DNA of 40,941 nucleotides from a virus (Duplodnaviria; Heunggongvirae; Uroviricota; Caudoviricetes): IMG/VR virus record IMGVR_UViG_2526164598_000016; one strand, written 5' to 3'. Positions 5,905 to 25,734 of this stretch are shown here, piece by piece (position 1 is the stretch's first letter; each line of letters begins with the position of its first letter). The position numbers were made by a program, and so were the translations under genes. The notes beneath the pieces were generated by a model that saw nothing but the letters and a program-made list of their open reading frames with translations, did no database searches and was not told where the DNA came from.

Positions 5905-6183
5905 TTAGGGAAACTGGCGTCTTGCGTGGATCACGTTTACTACTTCAACGCTTGATGTTGTTACGCGGTATAGAATTATATAGTTAGGGTGGGCTACAAT
6001 CTCACGCAAGCCAGGTACTCTGTCGCTTGGTGGGTATAAATACGGATGTTCGGATAACGGCAGCACACAACCCCTTAATCGCTGCCATAAGCGTTCAGCC
6101 GCATCTATGTCGAAACGAGCAATATAACTAGTTATATCATCTAGGTCGGTATCTGCGCTTTCAAGCCATAACACGGGTAACAT
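5905..6183 (-). CDS. RelE/ParE-family type II toxin (92 aa)
   Basis: MLPVLWLESADTDLDDITSYIA…VHARRQFP, typical ParE/RelE-fold sequence; start ATG sits 1 nt after the antitoxin stop (TAAAATG). Confidence 0.8.
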   Translation of the reverse strand: MLPVLWLESADTDLDDITSYIARFDIDAAERLWQRLRGCVLPLSEHPYLYPPSDRVPGLREIVAHPNYIILYRVTTSSVEVVNVIHARRQFP

Positions 6184-6184
6184 T

Positions 6185-6376
6185 TTACTGCTTGCTCCGT
6201 TCCTTACGCATCTTAGCAAAGCGTTCTGCCATTCTGCGCTCAACTTCGTCATGGGGAATTGCTGGGCGCGGATCTGCAAGGCTCGTTGCTACTTTCGCAC
6301 GCAGCCATTCGTTGTAACTGTTTTCTTGTTCAATGGTTTCAAATTCAGAAACCATTGGTGAAAGGGCTCTATTCAT
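6185..6376 (-). CDS. Cognate antitoxin (63 aa, ParD/StbD-like)
   Basis: Small acidic protein immediately upstream of and coupled to the toxin; GGAGG SD 6 nt upstream of the ATG at 6376. Confidence 0.75.
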   Translation of the reverse strand: MNRALSPMVSEFETIEQENSYNEWLRAKVATSLADPRPAIPHDEVERRMAERFAKMRKERSKQ

Positions 6377-6864: not shown

Positions 6865-7167
6865 ATGACATTAAAAGAGTTTATTAAATCATTAAGGGTT
6901 GGTGATGCTAAGAAATTCGCGGCCAGACTTGGTGTATCGCCATCTTACTTATCGCAAATGGCGTCTGGACGAACAGCTATATCTCCAACCCGCGCCCTTA
7001 TGATCGAATCTGCGACGGAAGGCCAAGTAAGTAGGGCGGAGCTACGACCCCATGATTGGGAGCTTATTTGGCCTGAGTATGCGAGCGGCATTCGTTTGGG
7101 GCAAACACATGTAGTTCATGCTGAAGGTGATTGTAGTACATGCTTATCTGATGGAGTTGATTCATGA
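6865..7167 (+). CDS. Cro/YdaS-family HTH regulator
   Basis: MTLKEFIKSL…GVSPSYLSQMASGRTAISP…LRPHDWELIWPEY; resembles YdaS-type Cro proteins of Rac-like prophages (recalled); SD GAGGAAGG. Confidence 0.75.
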   Translation: MTLKEFIKSLRVGDAKKFAARLGVSPSYLSQMASGRTAISPTRALMIESATEGQVSRAELRPHDWELIWPEYASGIRLGQTHVVHAEGDCSTCLSDGVDS

Positions 7168-7589
7168 AAATCAAGCATGAACACATCCGCATGGCGATGA
7201 ATGTCTGGGCGCATCCGGACGGCGAAAAAGTACCGGCTGCGAAAATTACCAAAGCGTATTTCGAGCTGGGAATGACGTTCCCGGAACTGTATGACGACAG
7301 CCATCCGGAAGCCCTGGCCCGTAATACCCAGAAAATTTTCCGTTGGCTGGATAAAGACACCCCTGATGCTGTTGAAAAAATGCAGGCTCTGTTACCGGCG
7401 ATCGAAAAGGCGATGCCGCCTTTGCTGGTGGCCCGTATGCGCAGCCACAGTTCTGAATATTACCGTGAGATCGTCGAACGGAGGGATCGGCTGGTGAAGG
7501 ATGTCGATGATTTTGTTGCGTCAGCGGTTGTTTTGTATGACCAGATGAATCGCGGCGGCCCGGCAGGGAATGCTGTGGTGATGCACTAA
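7164..7589 (+). CDS. YdaT-like protein (141 aa)
   Basis: ATGA-coupled to the preceding gene; the position after the Cro-like gene and the sequence style match ydaT of Rac-like prophages (recalled). Confidence 0.65.
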   Translation: MKIKHEHIRMAMNVWAHPDGEKVPAAKITKAYFELGMTFPELYDDSHPEALARNTQKIFRWLDKDTPDAVEKMQALLPAIEKAMPPLLVARMRSHSSEYYREIVERRDRLVKDVDDFVASAVVLYDQMNRGGPAGNAVVMH

Positions 7590-8614: not shown

Positions 8615-9037
8615 GTGGCAAAAGTTTTTACACAAGAAGAGCGGGAAAAAATTAAAGGGCTGATCGTGGAATTCGTACGCCTTAACGGACGAGGCACGAT
8701 TCGGCAGTTATCGGATGAAATTGGTGTCAGTCATGCGTCTGTCGGTCGTTTATGCATGGAGCTGGCCGCCAGTGGTGATGTTTACAATTCCGGTTACGGA
8801 GTATTCCCGTCTGAGCAGGCGCGCAAGGACTGGCAAAACGCCCGCAAAAAACTCTCAAGGGCAAAGCTGAAGAAACCATCTGTGGTTGATCCGGACCTTA
8901 TCTGGCTATTACCAGACGGCGAAATACGCCGCTACGACAGGCGTCAGAACATAATCTGTCGCGAGTGCCGGAAGAGCGAAGTTATGCAGCGCATATTGTC
9001 GTTTTATCAGGGTAATTTTCAGGAGGTAGCGCAGTGA
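8615..9037 (+). CDS. Hypothetical protein with probable HTH (140 aa)
   Basis: GTG start preceded by GGTAATTTTCAGGAGG; …IRQLSDEIGVSHASVGRL… HTH-like segment. Confidence 0.55.
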   Translation: MAKVFTQEEREKIKGLIVEFVRLNGRGTIRQLSDEIGVSHASVGRLCMELAASGDVYNSGYGVFPSEQARKDWQNARKKLSRAKLKKPSVVDPDLIWLLPDGEIRRYDRRQNIICRECRKSEVMQRILSFYQGNFQEVAQ

Positions 9038-9528
9038 GTGCACCGGCAACCATTCTTGATATGTGCTGTGGCAGCCGCATGTTCTGGTTCGATAAGAATG
9101 ACGACCGGGCGATATTTAGCGATATCAGAAAGGAAGAGCACACATTATGTGATGGACGAAGACTGATAATTAGCCCTGACCTGATAGCAGATTTTCGTGC
9201 ATTACCATTTGCAGACGCATCGTTTCCGGTGGTTGTATTCGACCCTCCGCATCTTGAGCGTGTTGGTGATAACGCCTGGATGGGAAAGAAATATGGACGG
9301 CTGAATAAAGATACCTGGCGTGATGATTTGCGGCAGGGATTTAAAGAAGCCTTTCGTGTGTTGCGGCCATACAGCGTTCTGATTTTTAAATGGAATGAAA
9401 CGCAAATACCTGTTCGCCAGATATTGGCACTGACCGACAGAAAGCCTGTTATCGGTCAACGAACAGGAAAGGGTGACAAGACCCACTGGATTATTTTTAT
9501 GAAGGAGGCGACCAGTGAGCAAGATTGA
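9034..9528 (+). CDS. Small phage DNA methyltransferase (SAM-binding motif I-like LDMCCGS, catalytic DPPH)
   Basis: 164-aa ORF with …ILDMCCGSRMFWF… and …VVVFDPPHL…; GTG start after the second copy of GGTAATTTTCAGGAGG. Confidence 0.65.
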   Translation: MSAPATILDMCCGSRMFWFDKNDDRAIFSDIRKEEHTLCDGRRLIISPDLIADFRALPFADASFPVVVFDPPHLERVGDNAWMGKKYGRLNKDTWRDDLRQGFKEAFRVLRPYSVLIFKWNETQIPVRQILALTDRKPVIGQRTGKGDKTHWIIFMKEATSEQD

Positions 9529-14721: not shown

Positions 14722-15096
14722 ATGCGTATAGAGTTTGTTTTGCCTTACCCGCCGACGGTGAACACCTACTGGCGACGTCGTGGCAGCACATATTTTGTAT
14801 CAAAAGCCGGTGAGCGTTATCGCCGGGCTGTGGCGCTTATTGTTCGCCAGCAGCGGCTGAAATTAAGCCTGTCCGGAAGGCTGGCGATAAAGATTATTGC
14901 CGAGCCACCGGATAAGCGCCGCCGTGACCTGGACAATATTCTGAAAGCGCCGCTGGATGCGCTGACGCATGCGGGGTTGCTAATGGACGATGAGCAGTTT
15001 GATGAAATCAATATCGTTCGTGCTCAGCCAGTATCTGGTGGACGTCTGGGGGTGAAGATTTACCCCATAATGCTTGCAGGGCAGGTCAAAAAATGA
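14722..15096 (+). CDS. rusA: Holliday junction resolvase RusA
   Basis: MRIEFVLPYPPTVNTYW…RDLDNILKAPLDALTHAGLL.DDEQ…; characteristic RusA sequence. Confidence 0.9.
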   Translation: MRIEFVLPYPPTVNTYWRRRGSTYFVSKAGERYRRAVALIVRQQRLKLSLSGRLAIKIIAEPPDKRRRDLDNILKAPLDALTHAGLLMDDEQFDEINIVRAQPVSGGRLGVKIYPIMLAGQVKK

Positions 15097-15914
15097 AACT
15101 GGAAGATTTACCGAAATACTACTCCCCAAAATCCCCCGGCCTGACTGATGCATCGGCCTCAACGTCGAAAGATGCGCTGAGTATCACTGATGTGATGGCC
15201 GCGCAGGGCATGACACAGAATCGGGCTGAGATGGGGTTTTCTGCGTTCCTTGGGAAAATGGGCATTAGTATGAATGACAGAGAGCGGGCAACAGAATTGC
15301 TGACAGAATATGCACTCAGTCGGTGTGATCGCGTGGCGGCGTTAAGAAAACTCCCGGCAGAAATAAAACCGGTAGTGATGCGCATTATGGCTTCGTACGC
15401 TTTTGAGGATTATGCCCGTAGCGCAGCGAGTAAAAAGCAGTGCCCTTGTTGCTATGGGGAAAAATTTATTGAAAGCGTAGTTTTTACAAACAAGGTCCAG
15501 TATCCGGATGGTAAGCCGCCGGTATGGGCAAAGTGTACGAAAGGTGTGTATCCGTCTTACTGGGAAGAATGGAAAAAAGTCAGGGAGGTGGTAAAAGTTG
15601 CCTGTCCGGAGTGTGGCGGAAAGGGTGAGGTTTCCACCGCCTGTAAGGATTGCCGTGGGCGTGGTGTCGCCATTCATCGTGAAGAGTCGGTAAAACGTGG
15701 TATGCCTGTTATCAGAGACTGCCAGCGTTGTGGTGGTCGTGGCTGTGAAAGACTACCATCAACGGAGGCATTTAATGCCATATGCGAAGTGACGAGTGCT
15801 ATCACGCTTGATACGTGGAAAAAATCAGTGAAACGCTTTTACGATACGTTGGTGGTTCGGTTTGACATTGAAGAGGCATGGGCGGAGCGGCAGTTAAAGA
15901 GGGTAACGCGATAG
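15093..15914 (+). CDS. Q: Late-gene antiterminator Q (zinc-finger type)
   Basis: 273-aa ORF with CPCC…CPECGGKG…CKDCRGRG…CQRCGGRG Cys clusters, directly upstream of a PR'-like promoter and terminator. Confidence 0.8.
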   Translation: MKLEDLPKYYSPKSPGLTDASASTSKDALSITDVMAAQGMTQNRAEMGFSAFLGKMGISMNDRERATELLTEYALSRCDRVAALRKLPAEIKPVVMRIMASYAFEDYARSAASKKQCPCCYGEKFIESVVFTNKVQYPDGKPPVWAKCTKGVYPSYWEEWKKVREVVKVACPECGGKGEVSTACKDCRGRGVAIHREESVKRGMPVIRDCQRCGGRGCERLPSTEAFNAICEVTSAITLDTWKKSVKRFYDTLVVRFDIEEAWAERQLKRVTR

Positions 15915-15919
15915 TGTTG

Positions 15920-15947
15920 TTGATTTTTCCCGAATCTGTGGTAAATT
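15920..15947 (+). promoter_or_regulatory. Late promoter PR' (-35 TTGATT, 16-nt spacer, -10 TAAATT; qut region follows)
   Basis: TTGATTTTTCCCGAATCTGTGGTAAATTTGCTCTAACGATGGG closely resembles the lambda PR' -10/initial transcribed region (recalled). Confidence 0.6.
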
Positions 15948-15993
15948 TGCTCTAACGATGGGCGTTTTATGCCTGACGTTAGAAGATTTTTTA

Positions 15994-16018
15994 CACCCCG
16001 CCGCCTGGCGGGTTTTTT
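15994..16018 (+). terminator. tR'-like intrinsic terminator
   Basis: CCCGCC-GCCT-GGCGGG hairpin followed by TTTTTT. Confidence 0.6.
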
Positions 16019-16140
16019 ATGACTGAAATCGCGTCAGTACAGTAAACGCGCTGGTGGCGGTGAATACCTGTCTTTCAGCTTGCTGGCTTTTTCGACAAGA
16101 GTTATTGGTGTGTCACGTTAACCGGAAAAGGGAAAAAGAC

Positions 16141-16338
16141 ATGCTAAAACAGCAGGATATGACAGAAACCGCCAGAGTAGTGTTTAATGAATTAAGCGTT
16201 ACCGAACCGGCGACAGTCGGGGAGATAGCGCAGAATACTTACCTTTCACGCGAACGCTGCCAGTTAATACTGGCCCAGCTGGTTATGGCGGGTCTGGCAG
16301 ACTATCAGTTCGGTTGTTACAGACGCCTTCCGCAGTGA
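16141..16338 (+). CDS. Small winged-helix-like DNA-binding protein (66 aa)
   Basis: Internal ATG with AAAGGGAAAAAG upstream; …TVGEIAQNTYLSRERCQLILAQLVMAGL… HTH-like. Confidence 0.45.
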   Translation: MLKQQDMTETARVVFNELSVTEPATVGEIAQNTYLSRERCQLILAQLVMAGLADYQFGCYRRLPQ

Positions 16339-16348
16339 AGGCTTTTTT
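16325..16348 (+). terminator. Second intrinsic terminator, overlapping the small gene stop
   Basis: GCCTTC-CGCAGT-GAAGGC followed by TTTTTT. Confidence 0.5.
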
Positions 16349-16488
16349 ATTTGTGGTAAATGGGCGGCTGGTGGGTGTTAGGGGCACCCACCAGCCATCT
16401 GCTCATGCGTTGGGTTCACAAGCAAACCTCAGGCCCACTGCTTTGCGCAAAAGCAGAATGAGCCTATCAGAGACAGGCTTAATGATCC

Positions 16489-17538
16489 ATGCTTAATACT
16501 GTAAAAATATCCAGTTGTGAGTTAATCAACGCCGACTGCCTGGAATTTATCCGGTCGTTACCCGAAAATTCTGTTGACCTGATAGTCACGGACCCGCCGT
16601 ACTTTAAAGTGAAGCCTGAGGGCTGGGATAACCAGTGGAAGGGCGACGATGATTACCTGAAGTGGCTGGACCAGTGTCTGGCGCAGTTCTGGCGGGTGCT
16701 GAAACCTGCCGGAAGTCTTTACCTGTTCTGTGGTCATCGCCTGGCATCTGATATCGAAATCATGATGCGTGAACGCTTCAGTGTGCTGAACCATATTATC
16801 TGGGCGAAGCCGTCCGGACGCTGGAACGGATGCAACAAGGAAAGCCTGCGGGCGTATTTCCCCGCCACAGAGCGCATTCTGTTCGCGGAACATTATCAGG
16901 GGCCGTATCGTCCGAAAGATGCCGGGTATGCGGCGAAGGGCAGTGCACTGAAACAGCATGTGATGGCCCCGCTGATTTCTTACTTTCGTGATGCGCGCGT
17001 GGCCCTGGGGATAACGGCAAAACAGATTGCAGATGCCACAGGAAAGAAAAACATGGTGTCGCACTGGTTCAGTGCCAGTCAGTGGCAGCTACCGAACGAA
17101 AGCGATTATCTGAAATTACAGTCGCTGTTTGCCCGGGTGGCAGAAGAGAAACATCAGCGCGGTGAACTGGAAAAGCCCCACCACCAGCTGGTGGATACGT
17201 ATACGTCACTGAACCGGCAGTATGTGGAGCTGCAGAGTGAATATAAGCATCTGCGGCGGTATTTTGGTGTGACGGCGCAGGTGCCGTACACGGATGTGTG
17301 GACACATAAACCGGTGCAGTTCTATCCCGGGAAACATCCGTGCGAAAAACCGGCAGAAATGCTGCAGCAGATAATCAGCGCAAGCAGTCGTCCGGGTGAC
17401 CTGGTTGCAGATTTTTTTATGGGCTCAGGTTCAACGGTAAAAGCTGCACTGGCGCTCGGGCGTCGTGCGATTGGCGTTGAACTGGAGACCGGACGTTTTG
17501 AGCAGACAGTCAGGGAAGTTCAGGATTTAATCGTTTGA
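16489..17538 (+). CDS. DNA methyltransferase, beta-class N6A/N4C type (DPPY before the C-terminal FxGSGS motif)
   Basis: …LIVTDPPYF… near the N-terminus and …DFFMGSGST… near the C-terminus (permuted motif order). Confidence 0.85.
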   Translation: MLNTVKISSCELINADCLEFIRSLPENSVDLIVTDPPYFKVKPEGWDNQWKGDDDYLKWLDQCLAQFWRVLKPAGSLYLFCGHRLASDIEIMMRERFSVLNHIIWAKPSGRWNGCNKESLRAYFPATERILFAEHYQGPYRPKDAGYAAKGSALKQHVMAPLISYFRDARVALGITAKQIADATGKKNMVSHWFSASQWQLPNESDYLKLQSLFARVAEEKHQRGELEKPHHQLVDTYTSLNRQYVELQSEYKHLRRYFGVTAQVPYTDVWTHKPVQFYPGKHPCEKPAEMLQQIISASSRPGDLVADFFMGSGSTVKAALALGRRAIGVELETGRFEQTVREVQDLIV

Positions 17539-17587
17539 AACGGATGAGATTGCAGAATTAATTACGCACCATTATTATTCTGCTTCC

Positions 17588-17663
17588 GGCCCTTTAGCTC
17601 AGTGGTGAGAGCGAGCGACTCATAATCGCCAGGTCGCTGGTTCAAATCCAGCAAGGGCCACCA
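17588..17663 (+). tRNA. tRNA with CAT anticodon (Ile2/Met-type; ileZ-like of Stx phages)
   Basis: Cloverleaf by hand: acceptor stem GGCCCTT/AAGGGCC, anticodon loop CTCATAA, encoded CCA end. Confidence 0.85.
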
Positions 17664-17763
17664 TCACAAACCGCCATTAGCTTATCAGGAAGAGCAGACG
17701 ACACGATAACAGGGTTGTTGGTGCGGGGGCGGGTCCCCGATGGCGGTCCATTATCGGTATTCA

Positions 17764-17840
17764 GCGTTGTTAGCTCAGCCGGACAGAGCAATTGCCTTCT
17801 AAGCAATCGGTCACTGGTTCGAATCCAGTACAGCGCGCCA
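17764..17840 (+). tRNA. tRNA-Arg (anticodon TCT)
   Basis: Acceptor stem GCGTTGT/ACAGCGC, anticodon loop CTTCTAA, encoded CCA end. Confidence 0.85.
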
Positions 17841-17947
17841 TATTCATTCTTCCAGATTCCTTTCGGCAGAGCCTTATACTGAAATATACCTGGCTCAGGA
17901 TATTGTTGAAAATATTATATGTTTGTCAAAAATAAAAGTTCTGTTAA

Positions 17948-18304
17948 GTGTTGATTGAGTGTTTGTTATACGGTCTAATGGTTTTTTCAGCATTAAATAT
18001 TTATCATTCATATGGTGTGGGTAGAGTGAATATTGATGAGGCGTCGGGGTGTTTCATCCTTAGGCAGCGTATTGATATAGTCAATGCAGAACGAGCAAAG
18101 GCCTTCAGCCGTTTGACAGTTTTGTTCTGTACTCCTGATCGTCTTTCGGGAAGAGACGTTATTATTCTGAATAGTGATGCTATACAGAGGGTTTGCGATG
18201 AGTTCATGGTGGCTAATTCAGAATTATTTGCTCTTGTTCAGGAGTACAACAGAATAGCCAGGACCTGTGGTATGGATGAACTTCGGATTACTCATCTGGG
18301 GTAG
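17948..18304 (+). CDS. Hypothetical ORF in the cargo slot (118 codons from GTG; alternative ATG at 17978)
   Basis: Open frame only; no convincing SD; unknown product. Confidence 0.3.
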   Translation: MLIECLLYGLMVFSALNIYHSYGVGRVNIDEASGCFILRQRIDIVNAERAKAFSRLTVLFCTPDRLSGRDVIILNSDAIQRVCDEFMVANSELFALVQEYNRIARTCGMDELRITHLG

Positions 18305-18696
18305 ATACATATCTGGATTATCACCGGTTACGGTAAAAAGTGATTGCTTACTGTTTTTGTGAATGGCATTGCAGCAGCCGGATAATGTCAGTGCTGGCTG
18401 ACGGTGTGCTGGTGGCGGGTGTGGTGGTTGCTGCTTTCCCGTTGCTGAAAAAGAAAACGCCAGACTGTTAGCCGGGTATCAGTTAGCGGGAGAAATTTTT
18501 AAATACTTCACAATTCAGGCGGTTGACTGTTGTCTGGTTTGCGGGGAGTTTGTTAAAAGAAACTGGCATGGTGAATCCCCCTGTGCGGAGGGGCAATCAG
18601 CGAGTAGGTATATGGGATAATCGCGGATTCAGGTGCTGGTACTGAATTCACCGGGAGGCACCCGGCACCATGCAATGGCACATAGCGCCACTCTCC

Positions 18697-18731
18697 AGCC
18701 CCTCTCCGGAGGGGCTGTTTATATTGATTTT
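18697..18731 (+). terminator. Hairpin plus T-rich tract (plus-strand terminator-like) inside the cargo slot
   Basis: AGCCCCTC-TCCG-GAGGGGCT followed by GTTTATATTGATTTT. Confidence 0.45.
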
Positions 18732-18760
18732 GTCAGATGTGAGTAAACTCCTTATGGACT

Positions 18761-19087
18761 TTATTGTTTTAGCCCATAAGGACATATTTGCAGAGTGCAA
18801 CGGTTATTAAAGCATTCATTCAATACGTTATCTGTATTTGTAGGGCATTCCTGGCTGTTTTTGATTAAATTCCAGAATGTTTTATTGAATGGTACTACGT
18901 TGTAAATGGTTACAGGTAGCACTTTGTTATTGAGCATGATGCCTGTGTGAGTCAGTGTAAATATACTTTCAGGAGGTAAGAAAGCATCCGATTGATACCA
19001 GATTATTAATTTTATTTTACTCCATATGACTGAAAAAGATATTCCGCATGATGGCTGGATAACTGTATCAATCACAATCCACTTCAT
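18761..19087 (-). CDS. Hypothetical Cys-containing protein (108 aa) in the cargo slot, opposite orientation to late genes
   Basis: ATG preceded by AAGGA at 7-nt spacing (reverse-complement reading); AT-rich codon usage; four Cys in the C-terminal third. Confidence 0.35.
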
Positions 19088-19347
19088 TTAGTTTCCTTGT
19101 TTATGCCTTGCTGGTGATGTTCTGAAAAGTATAAATGATATTTTTGATTGTAAACCATAGAGCAGAATTATTTTTCTGATGTTGTTTATTGTTTATTTAA
19201 ATGCAGGGTGGTTTATATCTCGTCTTGTAGTTTATCCATGCATATCTGCTTGATGATGAGGTTTTTAATTAAGGTATGGTTTTGTGTTTTTTCTGTATTA
19301 CATGTCAGGTATTTTAAAGAATCATTTTTCAGATGGTGGAAAGAACC

Positions 19348-21201
19348 ATGGCATTTAAACACTATGATGTTGTCAGGGCGGCGTCGCCGTCAGATCTTGC
19401 GGAAAAGCTGACACATAAACTGAAAGAGGGCTGGCAGCCGTTTGGTAGTCCGGTGGCCATAACCCCTTATACCCTGATGCAGGCGATTGCAGCAGAAGGT
19501 GATGTGGTCGTCAGTGGTGCAACTGAGCCGGAGTGGTACTACGTCATCGTACTGGCCGGGCAGTCCAATGCCATGGCTTACGGTGAAGGGCTTCCGCTTC
19601 CGGATTCATACGATGCGCCCCATCCGCGCATTAAGCAACTGGCCCGTCGTAACACAGTGACTCCCGGTGGTGAAGTATGCGTATTTAACGACATCATTCC
19701 TGCTGACCATTGTCTGCATGATGTTCAGGATATGAGTACGATTAACCATCCCCGGGCTGACCTGAGCAAAGGGCAGTACGGCTGTGTCGGACAGGGCTTA
19801 CATATTGCCAAAAAACTGCTTCCGTATATCCCTAATAACGCGGGGATCCTGCTGGTACCATGCTGTCGTGGTGGTTCGGCATTCACCCAGGGCACGGAGG
19901 GGACATTCAGCGAGTCCACGGGGGCCAGTCAGGATTCGGCTCGCTGGGGAGTGGGTAAGCCGTTATATCAGGATCTGCTTTTCCGCACGAAGGCAGCATT
20001 GCAGAAAAACCCGAAAAACGTTTTGCTGGCGATATGCTGGATGCAGGGGGAATTCGATATGACGAATGCCAGTTACGCCCAGCAGCCAGCAGCATTTCTT
20101 GCAATGGTACAGCAGTTCCGTGCTGACCTTGCCGGGCTGGCGGCGCAGTGTCACGGTGGAAGTCCGGCATCAGTCCCCTGGATTTGTGGCGACACGACAT
20201 ACGCGTGGAAACAAGAACACGGTACGCAATATGAAGTGGTATATGGTGCATATAAAGGTAAAGAATCCCAGCAGATTTATTTTGTTCCCTTTATGACCGA
20301 TGGTAGCGGAGTTAATACACCGACAAACAACCCGTCAGAAGATCCTGATATTGTCGGGTCTGGTTATTACGGTTCGGCATCCCGAACGAACAAAAACTGG
20401 GTATCATCAAATCGCCCGACGCATTTCAGCTCATGGGCGCGTCGTGGCATTATTCCCGATCGTATGGCAACCGCTATTCTGAACGCAGCCGGGCGCACCT
20501 CAGCTTTCATCAGTGGTAAGGCACCGGAAATCAAACCCTCGCCCGGCGGCAACACGCCATCGGGGCCGTCTGAAGATGCATCCGTACGCACAATCTCCCT
20601 GTTGCCGACAGCCGGAGAGGCTGCTGCGCAGGGCTGGACCATTAAGGACGGCGGAATTCAGTTGTCGGGTGGTGTATTTAAGATCGCCAAGCAGAGCAAT
20701 AAAACCTGGTCCCTGATGCATCCGGTGGATGACGCAGTCTCCCTGCTGACACGGGGTGGCAGACTGAGCTGTAAGTTTCGACTGTCAGGCGCACTGACCA
20801 ACAACCAGTTCGGCCTGGGAATTTATCTGTATACCGATGTAGCGTTACCTGACGTCGTGGCGATGACCGGGACTGGTAACCCGTTCCTGATGTCGTTCTT
20901 CACCCAGACCACAGACGGCAAACTGAATCTGATGCATCACAAGAAAGCAGGAAACACAAAGTTGGGCGAGTTCGGGAATTACAGTAATGACTGGCAGACG
21001 CTGGAACTGGTGTTCACCGCCGGCAGTGCCACGGTTACTCCGAAACTGAATGGAGTGGCTGGCCCGGCATTCCAGGTCATAAAAGACAGTCTGACACTGG
21101 GGCTGAATGCGCTGACGCTGACGGATATTACCAAAAATGCAGCGTATGGCGTTGAGATAGAAAGTCTGGTGCTGGAGATAAATGCACCGGCATCATCATA
21201 A
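19348..21201 (+). CDS. nanS: NanS-p-like sialate O-acetylesterase (N-terminal DUF1737-like region, SGNH/SASA hydrolase core)
   Basis: GQSNA motif (…VIVLAGQSNAMAYGEG…); matches prophage nanS-p genes found downstream of stx (recalled); ATG at 19348 with GGAAAGA SD. Confidence 0.8.
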   Translation: MAFKHYDVVRAASPSDLAEKLTHKLKEGWQPFGSPVAITPYTLMQAIAAEGDVVVSGATEPEWYYVIVLAGQSNAMAYGEGLPLPDSYDAPHPRIKQLARRNTVTPGGEVCVFNDIIPADHCLHDVQDMSTINHPRADLSKGQYGCVGQGLHIAKKLLPYIPNNAGILLVPCCRGGSAFTQGTEGTFSESTGASQDSARWGVGKPLYQDLLFRTKAALQKNPKNVLLAICWMQGEFDMTNASYAQQPAAFLAMVQQFRADLAGLAAQCHGGSPASVPWICGDTTYAWKQEHGTQYEVVYGAYKGKESQQIYFVPFMTDGSGVNTPTNNPSEDPDIVGSGYYGSASRTNKNWVSSNRPTHFSSWARRGIIPDRMATAILNAAGRTSAFISGKAPEIKPSPGGNTPSGPSEDASVRTISLLPTAGEAAAQGWTIKDGGIQLSGGVFKIAKQSNKTWSLMHPVDDAVSLLTRGGRLSCKFRLSGALTNNQFGLGIYLYTDVALPDVVAMTGTGNPFLMSFFTQTTDGKLNLMHHKKAGNTKLGEFGNYSNDWQTLELVFTAGSATVTPKLNGVAGPAFQVIKDSLTLGLNALTLTDITKNAAYGVEIESLVLEINAPASS

Positions 21202-21411: not shown

Positions 21412-21813
21412 GTGGGAACCAAAGTGTCAGATATGCAGAAAAATGTGACTCCCGGCAGGCGAAAAGGCTGCCCTAATTATCCTCCCGAATTTAAACAGCA
21501 GCTCGTTGCTGCCTCCTGTGAACCCGGGATATCCATCTCAAAACTTGCTCTTGAAAATGGCATTAACGCCAATCTGTTGTTCAAATGGCGACAACAATGG
21601 CGCGAGGGAAAGCTGCTATTACCTTCTTCAGAGAGCCCCCAGCTACTTCCTGTGACTCTCGATGCAGCTGCCGAACAGCCAGAATCGCTCGCAGAGGACC
21701 CGGAAACCCTCAGTATCAGCTGTGAGGTAACGTTCCGGCACGGGACGCTCCGCTTCAATGGCAATGTCAGCGAAAAGCTCCTGACTCTGCTGATACAGGA
21801 ACTGAAGCGATGA
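21412..21813 (+). CDS. IS66 accessory protein TnpA (orf1); alternative ATG start at 21433
   Basis: HTH-containing small ORF typical of the first IS66 gene. Confidence 0.75.
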   Translation: MGTKVSDMQKNVTPGRRKGCPNYPPEFKQQLVAASCEPGISISKLALENGINANLLFKWRQQWREGKLLLPSSESPQLLPVTLDAAAEQPESLAEDPETLSISCEVTFRHGTLRFNGNVSEKLLTLLIQELKR

Positions 21814-22157
21814 TCCCGTTACCTTCCGGGACCAAAATTTGGCTGGTTGCCGGTATCACCGATATGAGAAATGGCTTCAACGGCCTGGCTGCGAAAGTAC
21901 AAACGGCGCTGAAAGACGATCCCATGTCCGGCCATGTTTTCATTTTCCGGGGCCGCAGCGGCAGTCAGGTTAAACTGCTGTGGTCCACCGGTGACGGACT
22001 GTGCCTCCTGACCAAACGGCTGGAGCGTGGGCGCTTCGCCTGGCCGTCAGCCCGTGATGGCAAAGTGTTCCTTACGCAGGCGCAGCTGGCGATGCTGCTG
22101 GAAGGTATCGACTGGCGACAGCCCAAGCGGTTGCTGACCTCCCTGACCATGCTGTAA
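21810..22157 (+). CDS. IS66 TnpB (orf2)
   Basis: [27 protein letters not shown]… typical IS66 orf2; ATGA-coupled to orf1. Confidence 0.85.
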
Positions 22158-22206
22158 ATCTCTTTATCCTGGTTGTCACAGAATAAGCCCGGTAAAATAC
22201 GGGCTT

Positions 22207-23745
22207 ATGAACGACATCTCTTCTGACGACATCTTCCTGCTGAAACAGCGCCTGGCCGAACAGGAAGCGCTGATCCACGCCCTGCAGGAAAAGCTGAGCA
22301 ACCGGGAGCGCGAAATAGACCATCTGCAGGCGCAGCTGGATAAACTCCGCCGGATGAACTTCGGCAGTCGTTCCGAAAAAGTCTCCCGCCGTATCGCACA
22401 AATGGAAGCCGATCTGAACCGGCTTCAGAAAGAGAGCGATACGCTGACTGGTAGGGTGTATGACCCGGCTGTACAGCGTCCGTTGCGTCAGACCCGCACC
22501 CGTAAGCCGTTCCCTGAATCACTACCCCGTGACGAAAAGCGACTGTTGCCTGCGGCGCCGTGCTGCCCGAACTGCGGCGGTTCACTGAGCTATCTGGGCG
22601 AGGATACCGCCGAACAGCTGGAGTTGATGCGTAGTGCCTTCCGGGTTATCCGGACGGTACGGGAAAAACATGCCTGTACTCAGTGCGATGCCATCGTGCA
22701 GGCACCTGCACCTTCGCGGCCCATCGAGCGGGGTATCGCCGGACCGGGGCTGCTGGCCCGCGTGCTGACCTCGAAGTATGCAGAGCACACCCCGCTGTAT
22801 CGCCAGTCAGAAATATACGGCCGGCAAGGTGTGGAGCTGAGCCGTTCACTGCTGTCGGGCTGGGTGGATGCATGCTGCCGGCTGCTGTCTCCGCTGGAAG
22901 AGGCGCTTCATGGCTATGTCATGACTGACGGCAAACTCCATGCCGATGATACCCCGGTCCAGGTACTGCTGCCGGGTAATAAGAAGACGAAGACCGGGCG
23001 GTTGTGGGCGTATGTTCGTGATGACCGCAATGCCGGGTCAGCGTTGGCACCTGCAGTGTGGTTCGCTTACAGCCCGGACAGAAAAGGCATCCATCCGCAG
23101 ACTCATCTTGCCTGCTTCAGCGGTGTGCTGCAAGCGGATGCGTACGCCGGGTTCAACGAGCTGTATCGCAATGGTGGGATAACGGAAGCTGCCTGCTGGG
23201 CTCATGCCCGCCGAAAGATCCACGATGTGCACGTCCGCATCCCGTCAGCACTGACGGAAGAAGCCCTGGAGCAGATCGGTCAGTTGTACGCCATAGAGGC
23301 GGATATAAGGGGAATGCCGGCAGAGCAGCGGCTTGCTGAACGTCAGCGAAAAACGAAACCGCTGTTGAAATCCCTGGAAAGCTGGTTGCGTGAAAAGATG
23401 AAAACCCTGTCGCGACACTCAGAACTGGCGAAAGCGTTCGCATACGCCCTGAACCAGTGGCCGGCGCTGACGTACTATGCAGATGATGGCTGGGCTGAGG
23501 CGGACAATAACATCGCTGAAAATGCGTTGCGGATGGTCAGTCTGGGCCGCAAAAACTACCTGTTCTTCGGTTCGGATCATGGAGGAGAGCGGGGAGCGCT
23601 GCTGTACAGCCTGATCGGGACGTGCAAACTGAACGGAGTGGAGCCAGAAAGCTACCTCCGCTATGTCCTTGACGTCATAGCCGACTGGCCGATAAACCGG
23701 GTCGGCGAACTGCTCCCCTGGCGCGTAGCACTGCCGACTGAATAA
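22207..23745 (+). CDS. IS66-family transposase TnpC
   Basis: 512-aa ORF with N-terminal leucine zipper, CxxC…CxxC zinc ribbon and DDE-type core, as in IS66 transposases. Confidence 0.9.
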
Positions 23746-24435: not shown

Positions 24436-24969
24436 ATGAACGCAAAAATCAGATACGGCCTGTCGGCTGCCGTTCTGGCACTGATTGCCGCTGGTGCGCC
24501 TGCGCCTGACATTCTCGACCAGTTTCTGGATGAAAAGGAAGGTAACCACACCACGGCATACCGTGATGGCGCGGGTATCTGGACCATCTGCCGCGGTGCC
24601 ATCCTGGTGGATGGCAAACCTGTCGTTCCGGGCATGAAGTTGTCGAAGGAAAAATGCGACCGGGTTAACGCCATTGAGCGTGATAAGGCGCTGGCATGGG
24701 TGGAGAAAAACATCAAAGTGCCATTGAGCGAACCCCAGAAAGCGGGGATCGCGTCATTCTGTCCGTACAACATTGGTCCCGGTAAGTGTTTCCCGTCGAC
24801 GTTTTACAGACGAATTAATGCTGGCGATCGCAGGGGAGCATGTGAGGCGATTCGCTGGTGGATTAAGGACGGTGGCAGAGACTGCCGTATTCGTTCAAAT
24901 AACTGCTATGGACAGGTCTCACGGCGTGACCAGGAGAGCGCGCTGGCGTGCTGGGGTATCGACAGATAA
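24436..24969 (+). CDS. R: SAR-endolysin (phage lysozyme with N-terminal signal-anchor-release segment)
   Basis: MNAKIRYGLSAAVLALIAAGAPAP… followed by a lysozyme-like core. Confidence 0.85.
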   Translation: MNAKIRYGLSAAVLALIAAGAPAPDILDQFLDEKEGNHTTAYRDGAGIWTICRGAILVDGKPVVPGMKLSKEKCDRVNAIERDKALAWVEKNIKVPLSEPQKAGIASFCPYNIGPGKCFPSTFYRRINAGDRRGACEAIRWWIKDGGRDCRIRSNNCYGQVSRRDQESALACWGIDR

Positions 24970-25127: not shown

Positions 25128-25265
25128 GTGTTTGATTTTAGCAAACTGATTCGGGAGATTCGAGTGGTGGCTGAAAAATTATCCACCTGGAAGTTCATTC
25201 TTATCTGGCTGGTGTTTGTGATTATGGCCTCCGGTTATTTCATCGGTCAGATACGCTGGTGGTGA
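25128..25265 (+). CDS. Possible 45-aa membrane peptide between R and Rz (not in ORF track)
   Basis: GTG start with AAAGGAGA SD; hydrophobic core WKFILIWLVFVIMASGYFIG; stop 1 nt before the Rz ATG. Confidence 0.35.
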   Translation: MFDFSKLIREIRVVAEKLSTWKFILIWLVFVIMASGYFIGQIRWW

Positions 25266-25266
25266 A

Positions 25267-25734
25267 ATGAACCGCGTACTGTGCGTGGTCATCATTGCCC
25301 TGCTGGTGGCCTGTGGTGCGCTTAGTCTGGGGCTGAATCATTACCGTGATAACGCCATAACCTACAAAGAGCAGCGCGATAAAAAAGTCAGTGAGCTGGA
25401 GCAGGCAAATGCAACCATTACTGATATGCAGCAGCGCCAGCGTGATGTTGCTGCACTTGATGCCAGATACTCGAGGGAATTAGCCGATGCGAGAGCTGAA
25501 AATGAAACTCTGCGCGCTGACGTTGCCGCTGGTCGTAAGCGCCTGCGGATCAACGCCACCTGCCCCGGTACCGTGCGTGAAGCCCCCACCACCTCCGGCG
25601 TGGATAATGCAACCGGCCCCCGACTGGCAGACACCGCTGAACGGGATTATTTCACTCTCAGAGAGCGGTTGATGCTGATGCAGAAGCAGCTGGAAGTGGC
25701 GCAGGAATATATCCGCACTCAGTGCCTGAAATAA
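25267..25734 (+). CDS. Rz: Spanin, inner-membrane subunit (Rz)
   Basis: N-terminal TM segment, coiled-coil-rich periplasmic domain, embedded Rz1 frame. Confidence 0.85.
   Translation: MNRVLCVVIIALLVACGALSLGLNHYRDNAITYKEQRDKKVSELEQANATITDMQQRQRDVAALDARYSRELADARAENETLRADVAAGRKRLRINATCPGTVREAPTTSGVDNATGPRLADTAERDYFTLRERLMLMQKQLEVAQEYIRTQCLK
25502..25672 (+). CDS. Rz1: Spanin, outer-membrane lipoprotein subunit (Rz1), embedded in Rz in another frame
   Basis: MKLCALTLPLVVSAC lipobox followed by a Pro-rich segment. Confidence 0.7.
   Translation: MKLCALTLPLVVSACGSTPPAPVPCVKPPPPPAWIMQPAPDWQTPLNGIISLSESG

Follow-up and report, generated by a model that had tools for sequence, protein, structure and literature searches.

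Two prophage-encoded methyltransferases of Escherichia coli O104:H4 C227-11, M.EcoGI and M.EcoGII, which lie 16 of 349 residues apart, are the closest described relatives of the enzyme treated here (Murray et al. 2018, PMC5778455). Adenine methylation by M.EcoGII is independent of sequence context, over-expression of the enzyme slows growth, and the native lysogen does not express it; phage 1720a-02 encodes a very similar enzyme, and an anti-restriction role has been proposed for the family (PMC5778455). Two further members, PhiOS31_p25 of a Serratia phage and ARM81ld_p56 of an Aeromonas plasmid-prophage, were also found to be non-specific, and the phiP27 enzyme was predicted by the same authors to behave likewise. 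Constitutive expression of enzymes of this family is harmful. In single-molecule real-time (SMRT) methylomes of O111 strains of E. coli that make Shiga toxin (STEC), the M.EcoGI/M.EcoGII homologues are listed as 'nonspecific', with no activity detected in lysogens. Here we analyse the locus of such an enzyme in a 40,941-nucleotide (nt) stretch of viral DNA (IMG/VR record IMGVR_UViG_2526164598_000016), the whole of which is hereafter called the window. That is, we consider a methyltransferase gene at 16489-17538 together with a 145-nt structured RNA leader and a small winged-helix gene that precede it. The methylase itself is unremarkable, its family having been characterised before; what makes the locus interesting is the conserved leader RNA together with its winged-helix neighbour, and the published work on M.EcoGI and M.EcoGII describes neither the upstream small open reading frame (ORF) nor the leader.

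Sequence comparison identifies the 349-aa product of 16489-17538 (+ strand) as an M.EcoGII-type beta-class N6-adenine DNA methyltransferase. Its match to Pfam PF01555 (N6_N4_Mtase; 152.8 bits against a threshold of 26.7) covers residues 29-340, the motifs stand in the beta-class order (TDPPY at residues 34-38, a central target-recognition region, then FFMGSGS at 309-315), and both halves align to M.RsrI, CcrM and M.BceJIV-like structures. The protein is identical to M.EcoGII, likewise 349 aa long, at 330 of 350 aligned positions (about 94%), a figure weakened slightly by its source, a machine-read supplementary text (PMC11551740) that contains a few errors. The roughly 20 differing residues fall mostly in the central target-recognition region. 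Identity reaches 95% with the phage 1720a-02 enzyme and 87.6% with that of phiP27. Like M.EcoGI and M.EcoGII, therefore, the window enzyme is prophage-borne, has no nuclease partner, follows the order DPPY, target-recognition region, FxGxG and has relatives in 1720a-02 and phiP27. Since it is about 94% identical to the non-specific M.EcoGII, and since two further members of the family are non-specific, the question of its target specificity is answered by homology: the window allele is likely to methylate adenine in nearly any context.

A previous sequence-only reading of the window had recognised a beta-class DNA methyltransferase without a restriction partner, and both parts of that description are borne out, by the Pfam match and motif order on the one hand and by the neighbours on the other, which are Q, the small ORF and tRNA genes. 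No restriction nuclease gene is adjacent, nor was one found among the part of the window ORFs that was scanned (Q, RusA, DUF968, Ead/Ea22, ParE, exonuclease and IS66). Of the two roles proposed for the orphan enzyme in that reading, anti-restriction matches what the M.EcoGII literature proposes for the family during lytic growth. An epigenetic role in the lysogen is unlikely, M.EcoGI, M.EcoGII and the STEC homologues being without detectable methylation in lysogens.

A structured RNA leader upstream of the methyltransferase gene

The leader extends from 16348 to 16494 (+ strand) and is the only + strand match to our covariance model in the window (134.6 bits); in each locus the model finds one + strand match, which always abuts the methylase gene. 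Helix P1a (16360-16365/16401-16406) is stacked on P1b (16366-16377/16385-16396) and is followed by P2 (16400-16407/16417-16424), P3 (16431-16437/16459-16465) and P3b (16438-16444/16450-16456). P1a and P2 both use the strand GCUCAUG, so that the two helices are mutually exclusive. Towards its 3' end the leader is predicted to pair across the methylase start, with GGUCA..AGC facing GCU..UGAUC immediately 5' of an AUG lacking a Shine-Dalgarno sequence, and the bases from -6 to +3 around this AUG would be mostly paired. The minimum free energy of the fold is -72.5 kcal/mol (z-score -3.7), and the leader sequence is better conserved than the coding DNA that flanks it.

Support for this structure comes mainly from covariation. 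The covariance model was built from P1b, P2, P3 and P3b, with P1a left out. In a diverse alignment of 33 sequences to the model, compensatory changes are seen in 21 of 28 pairs, and the cells altered in both partners number 118, compared with 29 for shuffles (0 of 500), although alignments fitted to the model give counts that lean toward the modelled helices. Two results are free of that bias. Firstly, in a structure-blind MAFFT alignment 95% of the cells are paired, compared with 26-48% when the partners are slid. Secondly, P1a is 90-97% paired even though it lies outside the model, its AUGGG/CUCAU becoming GUGGG/CUCAC or CGUGGC/GCCACG in distant phages. Within P2, the pair 101-125 occurs as UA (4), CG (14), AU (5) and UG (4), with zero mismatches. 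Because of its G-U pairs, the structure can be assigned to the + strand RNA.

The 5' arm of P1b coincides with a Chi site (GCTGGTGG; 16367-16374, + strand) and is invariant in the Enterobacteriaceae-type leaders, while it differs in the N15-like, Vibrio and Hafnia versions. A palindromic DNA operator at P1b, to which the winged-helix protein would bind, was also considered. Its arms pair through G-U on one strand and are wholly replaced in the N15-like and Vibrio leaders, and the operator was rejected as the principal explanation of this helix, with some residual likelihood left to it.

In a scan of 15500-19400 against Rfam 15 at E ≤ 1, no match was found on the leader strand at 15900-17540; the one match, to P26 on the other strand, stayed sub-threshold (24 bits, threshold 36) and was judged to be due to chance. 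A literature search with the exact leader sequence gave zero matches. As far as Rfam 15 and the searched literature show, the leader RNA and its winged-helix neighbour thus appear to be undescribed. A catalogue published in 2023, with about 8,500 candidate RNAs of viruses, mentions four that lie upstream of 'DNA N-6-adenine-methyltransferase' genes, and these may overlap with the leader.

Late promoter, terminators and the winged-helix gene

The late promoter PR' lies at 15920-15959 (+ strand), with a -35 element TTGATT (15920-15925), an extended -10 element TGgTAAATT (15939-15947) and a pause-type sequence AACGAT (15954-15959). In the alignment its -10 (GGTAAATTTG) and pause-type (AACGATGGG) elements are identical to those of lambda PR', and promoter activity is predicted on this basis. 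A tR'-type intrinsic terminator follows, which the terminator scan places at 15997-16018 (+ strand; CCCGCCGCCTGGCGGG with a hairpin at 15997-16012, then T6), and a terminator of differing sequence occupies the same position in all related loci. Transcription from PR' to tR' (15954-16018) should yield a constitutive RNA of about 65 nt, an analogue of lambda 6S RNA and of the small RNA (sRNA) StxS of Shiga toxin (Stx) phages.

Further downstream, the same scan confirmed that the small ORF is followed by a hairpin terminator of its own, as had been proposed (hairpin T at 16325-16342 with T6; 16325-16348 as a whole, + strand). The final codons of the small ORF form the 5' arm of this hairpin and its stop codon lies inside the loop. 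The stem covaries, with double changes in three of six pairs, and a hairpin persists at this position even in units without the small ORF; the U-run is weaker in most relatives (UUUCUGCUGU). The methylase had been described as bracketed by two terminators. Two terminators do exist, but both flank the small ORF: the scan detected no terminator-like site downstream of the methylase gene, and a tRNA gene comes next.

A second TGGTAAAT promoter-like element had also been noticed ahead of the methylase gene. The repetition itself is genuine, TGTGGTAAAT being present twice in the window (at 15937 and 16352) against 0.1 expected, but the second copy (16352-16361, + strand) is neither conserved nor accompanied by a -35 element. 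In relatives its TGGTAAAT is replaced by TGTGAAAAT, TGTGGAAAT or TGTGAAAT, inside the conserved RNA leader; that is, the copy is the window-specific form of the conserved leader start YUGUGAAAAUGGGCG. A second promoter was therefore rejected, the motif not being conserved and a promoter scan of the + strand from 15800 to 17880 finding none.

Another conserved element lies 5' of the small ORF, namely the block CTTGCTG-N17-TATTGG-GTGTGTCAC (16079-16117, + strand), which is kept across 28 loci. It is similar to the annotated late promoter of N15 and phiKO2 (TTGGCA-N17-TATCTT) and remains under the threshold of the promoter scan; it may be a weak promoter or an element of the 5' untranslated region (UTR). 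Sequences of the window type alone also have a 10-nt inverted repeat (16084-16093/16132-16141, 90% complementary) that might let the 5' UTR of the small ORF pair with the ribosome-binding region of the same ORF.

The small ORF runs from the ATG at 16141 to the TGA ending at 16338 (+ strand), with a Shine-Dalgarno-like AAGGG 9-10 nt upstream, and encodes a protein of 65 aa, rather than the 66 first counted. Substitutions among 15 orthologues are distributed over the three codon positions as 1118:1038:3036, and because they concentrate at third positions the ORF can be taken as a real coding gene. The winged-helix fold suggested in the sequence-only reading agrees with the structure predicted by AlphaFold2 (mean predicted local distance difference test, pLDDT, 91.1), in which helices 4-16, 26-33 and 37-49 are followed by a beta-hairpin (strands 53-56 and 59-62). 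We are confident, on the strength of this model, that the protein is a minimal winged helix. Foldseek returned generic winged-helix domains only (E 2e-3 or worse; template modelling score 0.82 for IclR), comprising IclR and MarR DNA-binding domains, OhrR, the N-terminal domain of O-methyltransferases, SelB domains that bind selenocysteine insertion sequence (SECIS) RNA, and Z-alpha. The Pfam TrmB match (PF01978) stays below the family threshold (18.1 bits against 25.6; E 0.0024). The family counts 248 protein clusters in Enterobacterales under the NCBI name 'TrmB family transcriptional regulator' and corresponds to phrog_331 (E 7e-37), which has no assigned function. N15 gp51, which precedes the N15 methylase gp52, belongs to phrog_331 too (E 6e-28). 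The lambda orf-64 product was considered as a homologue and discarded, as it shows no similarity.

This gene is closely associated with the methylase. A set of 30 loci was assembled from 28 species-level loci (one genome per species), phiP27 and one Stx2c phage; in 29 of them the small ORF is followed by an M.EcoGII-type gene, although the small protein falls to 40% identity and the Q genes upstream differ, and the sole exception (L025), which has no methylase gene, is a decayed remnant. In the majority of the 28 species-level loci, 147-154 nt separate the stop of the small ORF from the first codon of the methylase gene. Viral contigs were scanned as well, with a pattern taken from the 5' half of the leader only, which yielded 73 model-confirmed leaders in a sample dominated by E. 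coli, and the gene was found upstream of 62 of them. A regulatory role of the 65-aa protein is plausible.

A model of late control and competing readings

The account that we favour joins the identity of the enzyme, late-operon control, gating by the leader and an accessory winged-helix regulator, and as a whole we consider it probable, with considerable room for doubt. In the lysogen, constitutive PR' transcripts would halt at tR', and those reading through would halt at the second terminator (16325-16348). After induction, Q-modified polymerase would pass both terminators and the methylase would be made alongside the late proteins, Q-dependent read-through presumably being the only route to its expression. 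The enzyme would modify replicating phage DNA before packaging, so that progeny DNA would resist many restriction systems in the next host. The leader would act in cis within the late transcript, gating or throttling expression of the first late gene, in this case a toxic methylase, at the level of translation or of RNA fate. The 65-aa protein would most likely act as an accessory regulator of the leader-methylase unit, by binding DNA or RNA, and would not be needed for enzyme activity.

A number of observations speak against one part or another of this account. Silence in the lysogen and Q-dependence at the window locus are argued from the anatomy of the locus and by analogy with other strains. 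The pairing close to the methylase start is confined to the main enteric (E. coli) clade, and the invariance of the P1b 5' arm may simply reflect the Chi site. The 65-aa protein has an isoelectric point of 5.1, and its putative recognition-helix residues vary while the leader 5' arm is invariant. Furthermore, about 10 of the 73 leader-methylase units have no small ORF and cloned M.EcoGII is active alone, so that the protein is dispensable. Finally, the 5' half of the leader can occur without an M.EcoGII-type gene: it precedes a C5-cytosine methyltransferase gene (PCQ motif) in one contig (L129, 3299-4464) and stands directly before a holin gene in two others (L141, 2191-2585; L135, 6116-6260, reverse strand). 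Lambda itself, at 45014-45155 (L246, 1215-1356) between tR' and S, gives a model match of 27 bits (E ~1e-6). The 5' half may thus serve the late transcript in general.

These last cases support a different reading, according to which the structured element belongs to the late transcription unit and is shared with lambda, the methylase having merely been inserted behind it. In that event the element would act on elongation, termination (possibly as put-type antitermination), Rho access, RNA processing or stability. HK022 put is a processive antitermination RNA and, like the leader, a two-stem RNA element in a phage operon leader that acts, or in the present case possibly acts, in cis; there is however no sequence or model match between the two, and the window leader lies downstream of terminators. 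The lambda match is located about 30-170 nt upstream of S and has recognisable P1a, P1b (GGCAGGAGGU/ACCUCCUGCC) and P2; no function assigned to 45014-45155 was found in the literature searched, which did not extend to the older lambda literature. Lambda and the window thus resemble each other in the identical -10 and pause elements of PR', in the 5' leader domain, which in lambda lies upstream of S, and in the short PR'-tR' RNA to be expected (cf. StxS), while lambda has neither the small winged-helix ORF nor a methylase.

Outside the set from which the model was built, the leader was also found in N15, phiKO2 and a Yersinia phage (38-60 bits), VHML and VP58.5 (49 bits), Vibrio ST2-1pr (34 bits) and Aeromonas PhAER-1 (26 bits), whereas the model had no match in the P2-like phiO18P or in 933W. 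In lambdoid, N15-like and VHML-like phages alike it is preceded by a hairpin or terminator, as the late-unit reading would have it. By sequence, the 5' domain is a late-leader feature of a subset of lambdoid and other temperate phages, and not strictly an accessory of the methylase. On the other side, 68 of the 73 leaders in the E. coli-dominated sample run directly into an M.EcoGII-type gene; among the remainder, one is cut by a contig end and one (L140) is a deletion remnant, in which an internal deletion joins the leader to the methylase C-terminus. Moreover, conservation alongside the methylase extends to the 3' domain and to the spacing up to the start codon, and the absence of the element from 933W means that late transcription does not need it. 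An element of the late unit at large, with the methylase a mere passenger, is in our view possible but doubtful.

A further argument for control of the methylase itself, and against a purely late-unit role, comes from Aeromonas and Vibrio. Unannotated ORFs matching PF10122 (Zn_ribbon_Com; threshold 22.9) lie between leader and methylase gene in PhAER-1 (L123, 1329-1502; 34.7 bits) and ST2-1pr (L126, about 1328-1438; 26.2 bits). Com is the translational activator of the toxic mom gene of phage Mu, and a Com-like gene in this position points to translational control of the Mu com-mom type. By this analogy the insertions are the best hint of such control for M.EcoGII-family methylases. The window shares with com-mom a late-expressed toxic DNA-modification gene, a small protein whose gene lies just 5' of it in the same orientation, and structured RNA around the start of the modification gene. 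It differs in that no Com ORF is present at 16343-16489, the upstream protein is a winged helix and not a zinc ribbon, and the methyltransferase is not Mom; nor is an OxyR/Dam- or C-activated promoter evident, and RNA binding by the winged helix would be hypothetical. Extending the analogy, the 145-nt element could represent an undescribed class of cis-regulatory RNA of Gammaproteobacteria temperate phages, with a P1a/P2 core common to lambda, N15-like, VHML-like and Stx-type versions, that gates the first late gene, in most cases a toxic methylase of promiscuous activity, the 65-aa protein being an RNA-binding winged-helix analogue of Com that times methylase synthesis after late transcription has started. 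We put this forward tentatively, as a proposal that may well prove wrong.

The role of the winged-helix gene can be read in another way, namely as a moron that is expressed in the lysogen, with its own weak promoter and terminator, whose targets lie in the host or in other phages and whose link to the methylase is physical only. The layout of promoter-like block, gene and terminator is that of a moron, and the gene has been lost from some units that retain leader and methylase. N15-type phages provide a further argument. Their gp51 belongs to the same PHROG as the 65-aa protein, gp52 is a methylase 57-61% identical to that of the window, and the same leader lies between a terminator and gp52. 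An annotated late promoter and the terminator are placed between gp51 and the leader, however, so that the methylase is the first late gene and gp51 is encoded upstream of the promoter, outside the late transcript. The block at 16079-16117, on the other hand, is a poor sigma-70 match at which no promoter was called, and the linkage of gene and methylase persists across very different phage backbones and Q types, which makes the moron reading unlikely compared with an accessory regulator of the leader-methylase unit.

Still less probable is the proposal of the sequence-only reading that the small helix-turn-helix (HTH) protein is a controller (C) protein of the restriction-modification type, acting on a dedicated second TGGTAAAT promoter, with the orphan methylase epigenetically active in the lysogen. 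C proteins such as C.PvuII, C.AhdI and C.Esp1396I are dimers with an Xre-type HTH; they recognise C-boxes located 5' of the gene that encodes them and regulate a nuclease gene. The likeness consists in a small putative nucleic-acid-binding protein encoded just 5' of a modification gene, which might delay or limit expression; the linkage of small ORF and methylase is tight, TGTGGTAAAT is repeated and resembles an extended -10 element, and a promoter-like block and a terminator flank the small ORF. However, the protein is a winged helix, and a Pfam scan gave no HTH_3-type (Xre-type) match, only the weak one to TrmB. No suitable inverted repeat that could act as a C-box was found in 16013-16140, the conserved block within it shows no palindrome, and next to the module no nuclease gene was detected. 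The dedicated promoter fares no better, its TGGTAAAT, which has no -35 element and ends in G, being replaced by TGTGAAAAT or TGTGAAAT in relatives, and members of the methylase family are silent in lysogens.

The least credible reading is attenuation through a leader peptide, in which an (A/G)UG at the base of P1a would start a mini-ORF (MGGWWVL in most enteric versions) whose translation would open P1, allow P2 to form and so expose the start of the methylase gene: the AUG or GUG is kept in nearly all leaders, the P1a/P2 alternative is conserved and the small-ORF stop about 22 nt upstream makes reinitiation conceivable, but the mini-ORF has no Shine-Dalgarno sequence, it varies in both frame and length (7 codons in most leaders, but 33 in the window and 5 in phiKO2, with indels that are not multiples of three) and the start codon is shifted in one Aeromonas leader.

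Genomic setting and significance

The window is a lambdoid, Stx-phage-like prophage without stx genes, and the region analysed is the leading module of its Q-dependent late operon, in which the methylase gene is the first of the large genes. Gene order runs from the integrase through the early region, a nin-like region and Q to the late region with its tRNAs, nanS-p-like esterase, IS66 insertion and lysis genes; the lambda-like head and tail genes come last. Within the late module, Q, the lambda-like PR' and the two terminator-like sites are followed by tRNAs, esterase and lysis genes, all on the same strand. E. coli chromosomes carry 99.9% identical DNA adjoining ompW. The Q antiterminator gene (15093-15914, + strand; 273 aa) matches Pfam Antiterm PF03589 with 170.9 bits and is labelled 'antitermination protein' by the Prokaryotic Genome Annotation Pipeline (PGAP) in a 99.9% identical genome. 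On the other side of the methylase, a tRNA gene with a CAU anticodon (ileZ-type; tRNA-Ile in the RefSeq annotation) occupies 17588-17663 (+ strand), starting 50 nt past the methylase stop, and a tRNA-Arg (UCU) gene occupies 17764-17840 (+ strand). Over the segment 15900-17900, identity amounts to 92-94% with the Q-to-stx interval of about 20 Stx2-converting phages and to 87% with phiP27; in the Stx2 phages the same module is located between Q and stx.

The stx slot of the window is occupied by the STnc100 sRNA and an IraM-like gene. STnc100 (18537-18726, + strand; Rfam, 132 bits against a threshold of 47) takes the exact position of stxAB in Stx phages, between the tRNA genes and the nanS-p-like esterase within the late operon. 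The IraM-like anti-adapter gene (18761-19087, - strand; NCBIfam PRK09919, 159.6 bits) is embedded in the late operon in the opposite orientation, near a small DUF3927 ORF (18340-18471, + strand), and the pair resembles cargo in the stx slot. Between esterase and lysis genes, the late unit is further interrupted by an IS66-family element (21412-23745) with two small ORFs and a 512-aa DDE transposase. Chi (GCTGGTGG) is present at 15 sites of the window between 1393 and 25309, compared with 1.7 expected, a number reached by 0 of 100 shuffles. Besides the one in P1b, the sites include 16050-16057, 24854-24861, 25255-25262 and 25302-25309; 12 of the 15 are on the + strand, and all lie left of terminase and cos, the 15 kb that encode head and tail proteins having none. 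Such an orientation would suit protection against RecBCD that enters from the lysis-side end once cos has been cut.

The early region also encodes a second small methyltransferase with a DPPH motif, as had been read from the sequence (9034-9528, + strand; 164 aa). This putative S-adenosylmethionine (SAM)-dependent enzyme has the motif I sequence DMCCGS ahead of the motif IV sequence DPPH, and 28 homologues keep both DMCCGS and FDPPH without variation. The enzyme is apparently an orphan, and its designation as 'DNA methyltransferase' derives from the annotation of phrog_954 (E 3e-87). The GTG start of the gene overlaps the stop of a DUF977 gene, and Ead/Ea22-like genes follow. Pfam matches are sub-threshold only, searches of the PDB by sequence and by profile gave no solved relative, and the AlphaFold2 model is poor (pLDDT 55). 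A relationship with PamA of Staphylococcus aureus (141 aa, NPPY, GATC-specific) was considered and dropped, the similarity being superficial and no link established. The family comprises 7828 protein clusters named 'class I SAM-dependent methyltransferase' and 251 phage records across phyla. Identity is about 50% between the E. coli protein and those of Streptococcus, Listeria, Gordonia or Vibrio phages, and a similar level holds across phages of Firmicutes, Actinobacteria, Proteobacteria and Bacteroidetes, with a haloarchaeal virus also represented, which is unusually conserved for a phage accessory gene; no published characterisation of the family was found. Two other early genes encode a ParE-family toxin (5905-6279, - strand) and a YdaT-like protein (7164-7589, + strand).

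M.EcoGII is a commercial reagent with which chromatin and RNA are footprinted. The leader RNA and the small protein would offer two handles on how phages silence, and then switch on, a methylase that acts genome-wide. In many Stx2 phages the module is situated directly 5' of stx, so that whatever influences read-through or the fate of the RNA at this point could also change how much toxin is made. The match upstream of S in lambda, with the reservation already made for the older literature, suggests that a conserved RNA element has possibly gone unremarked in a very well studied operon.

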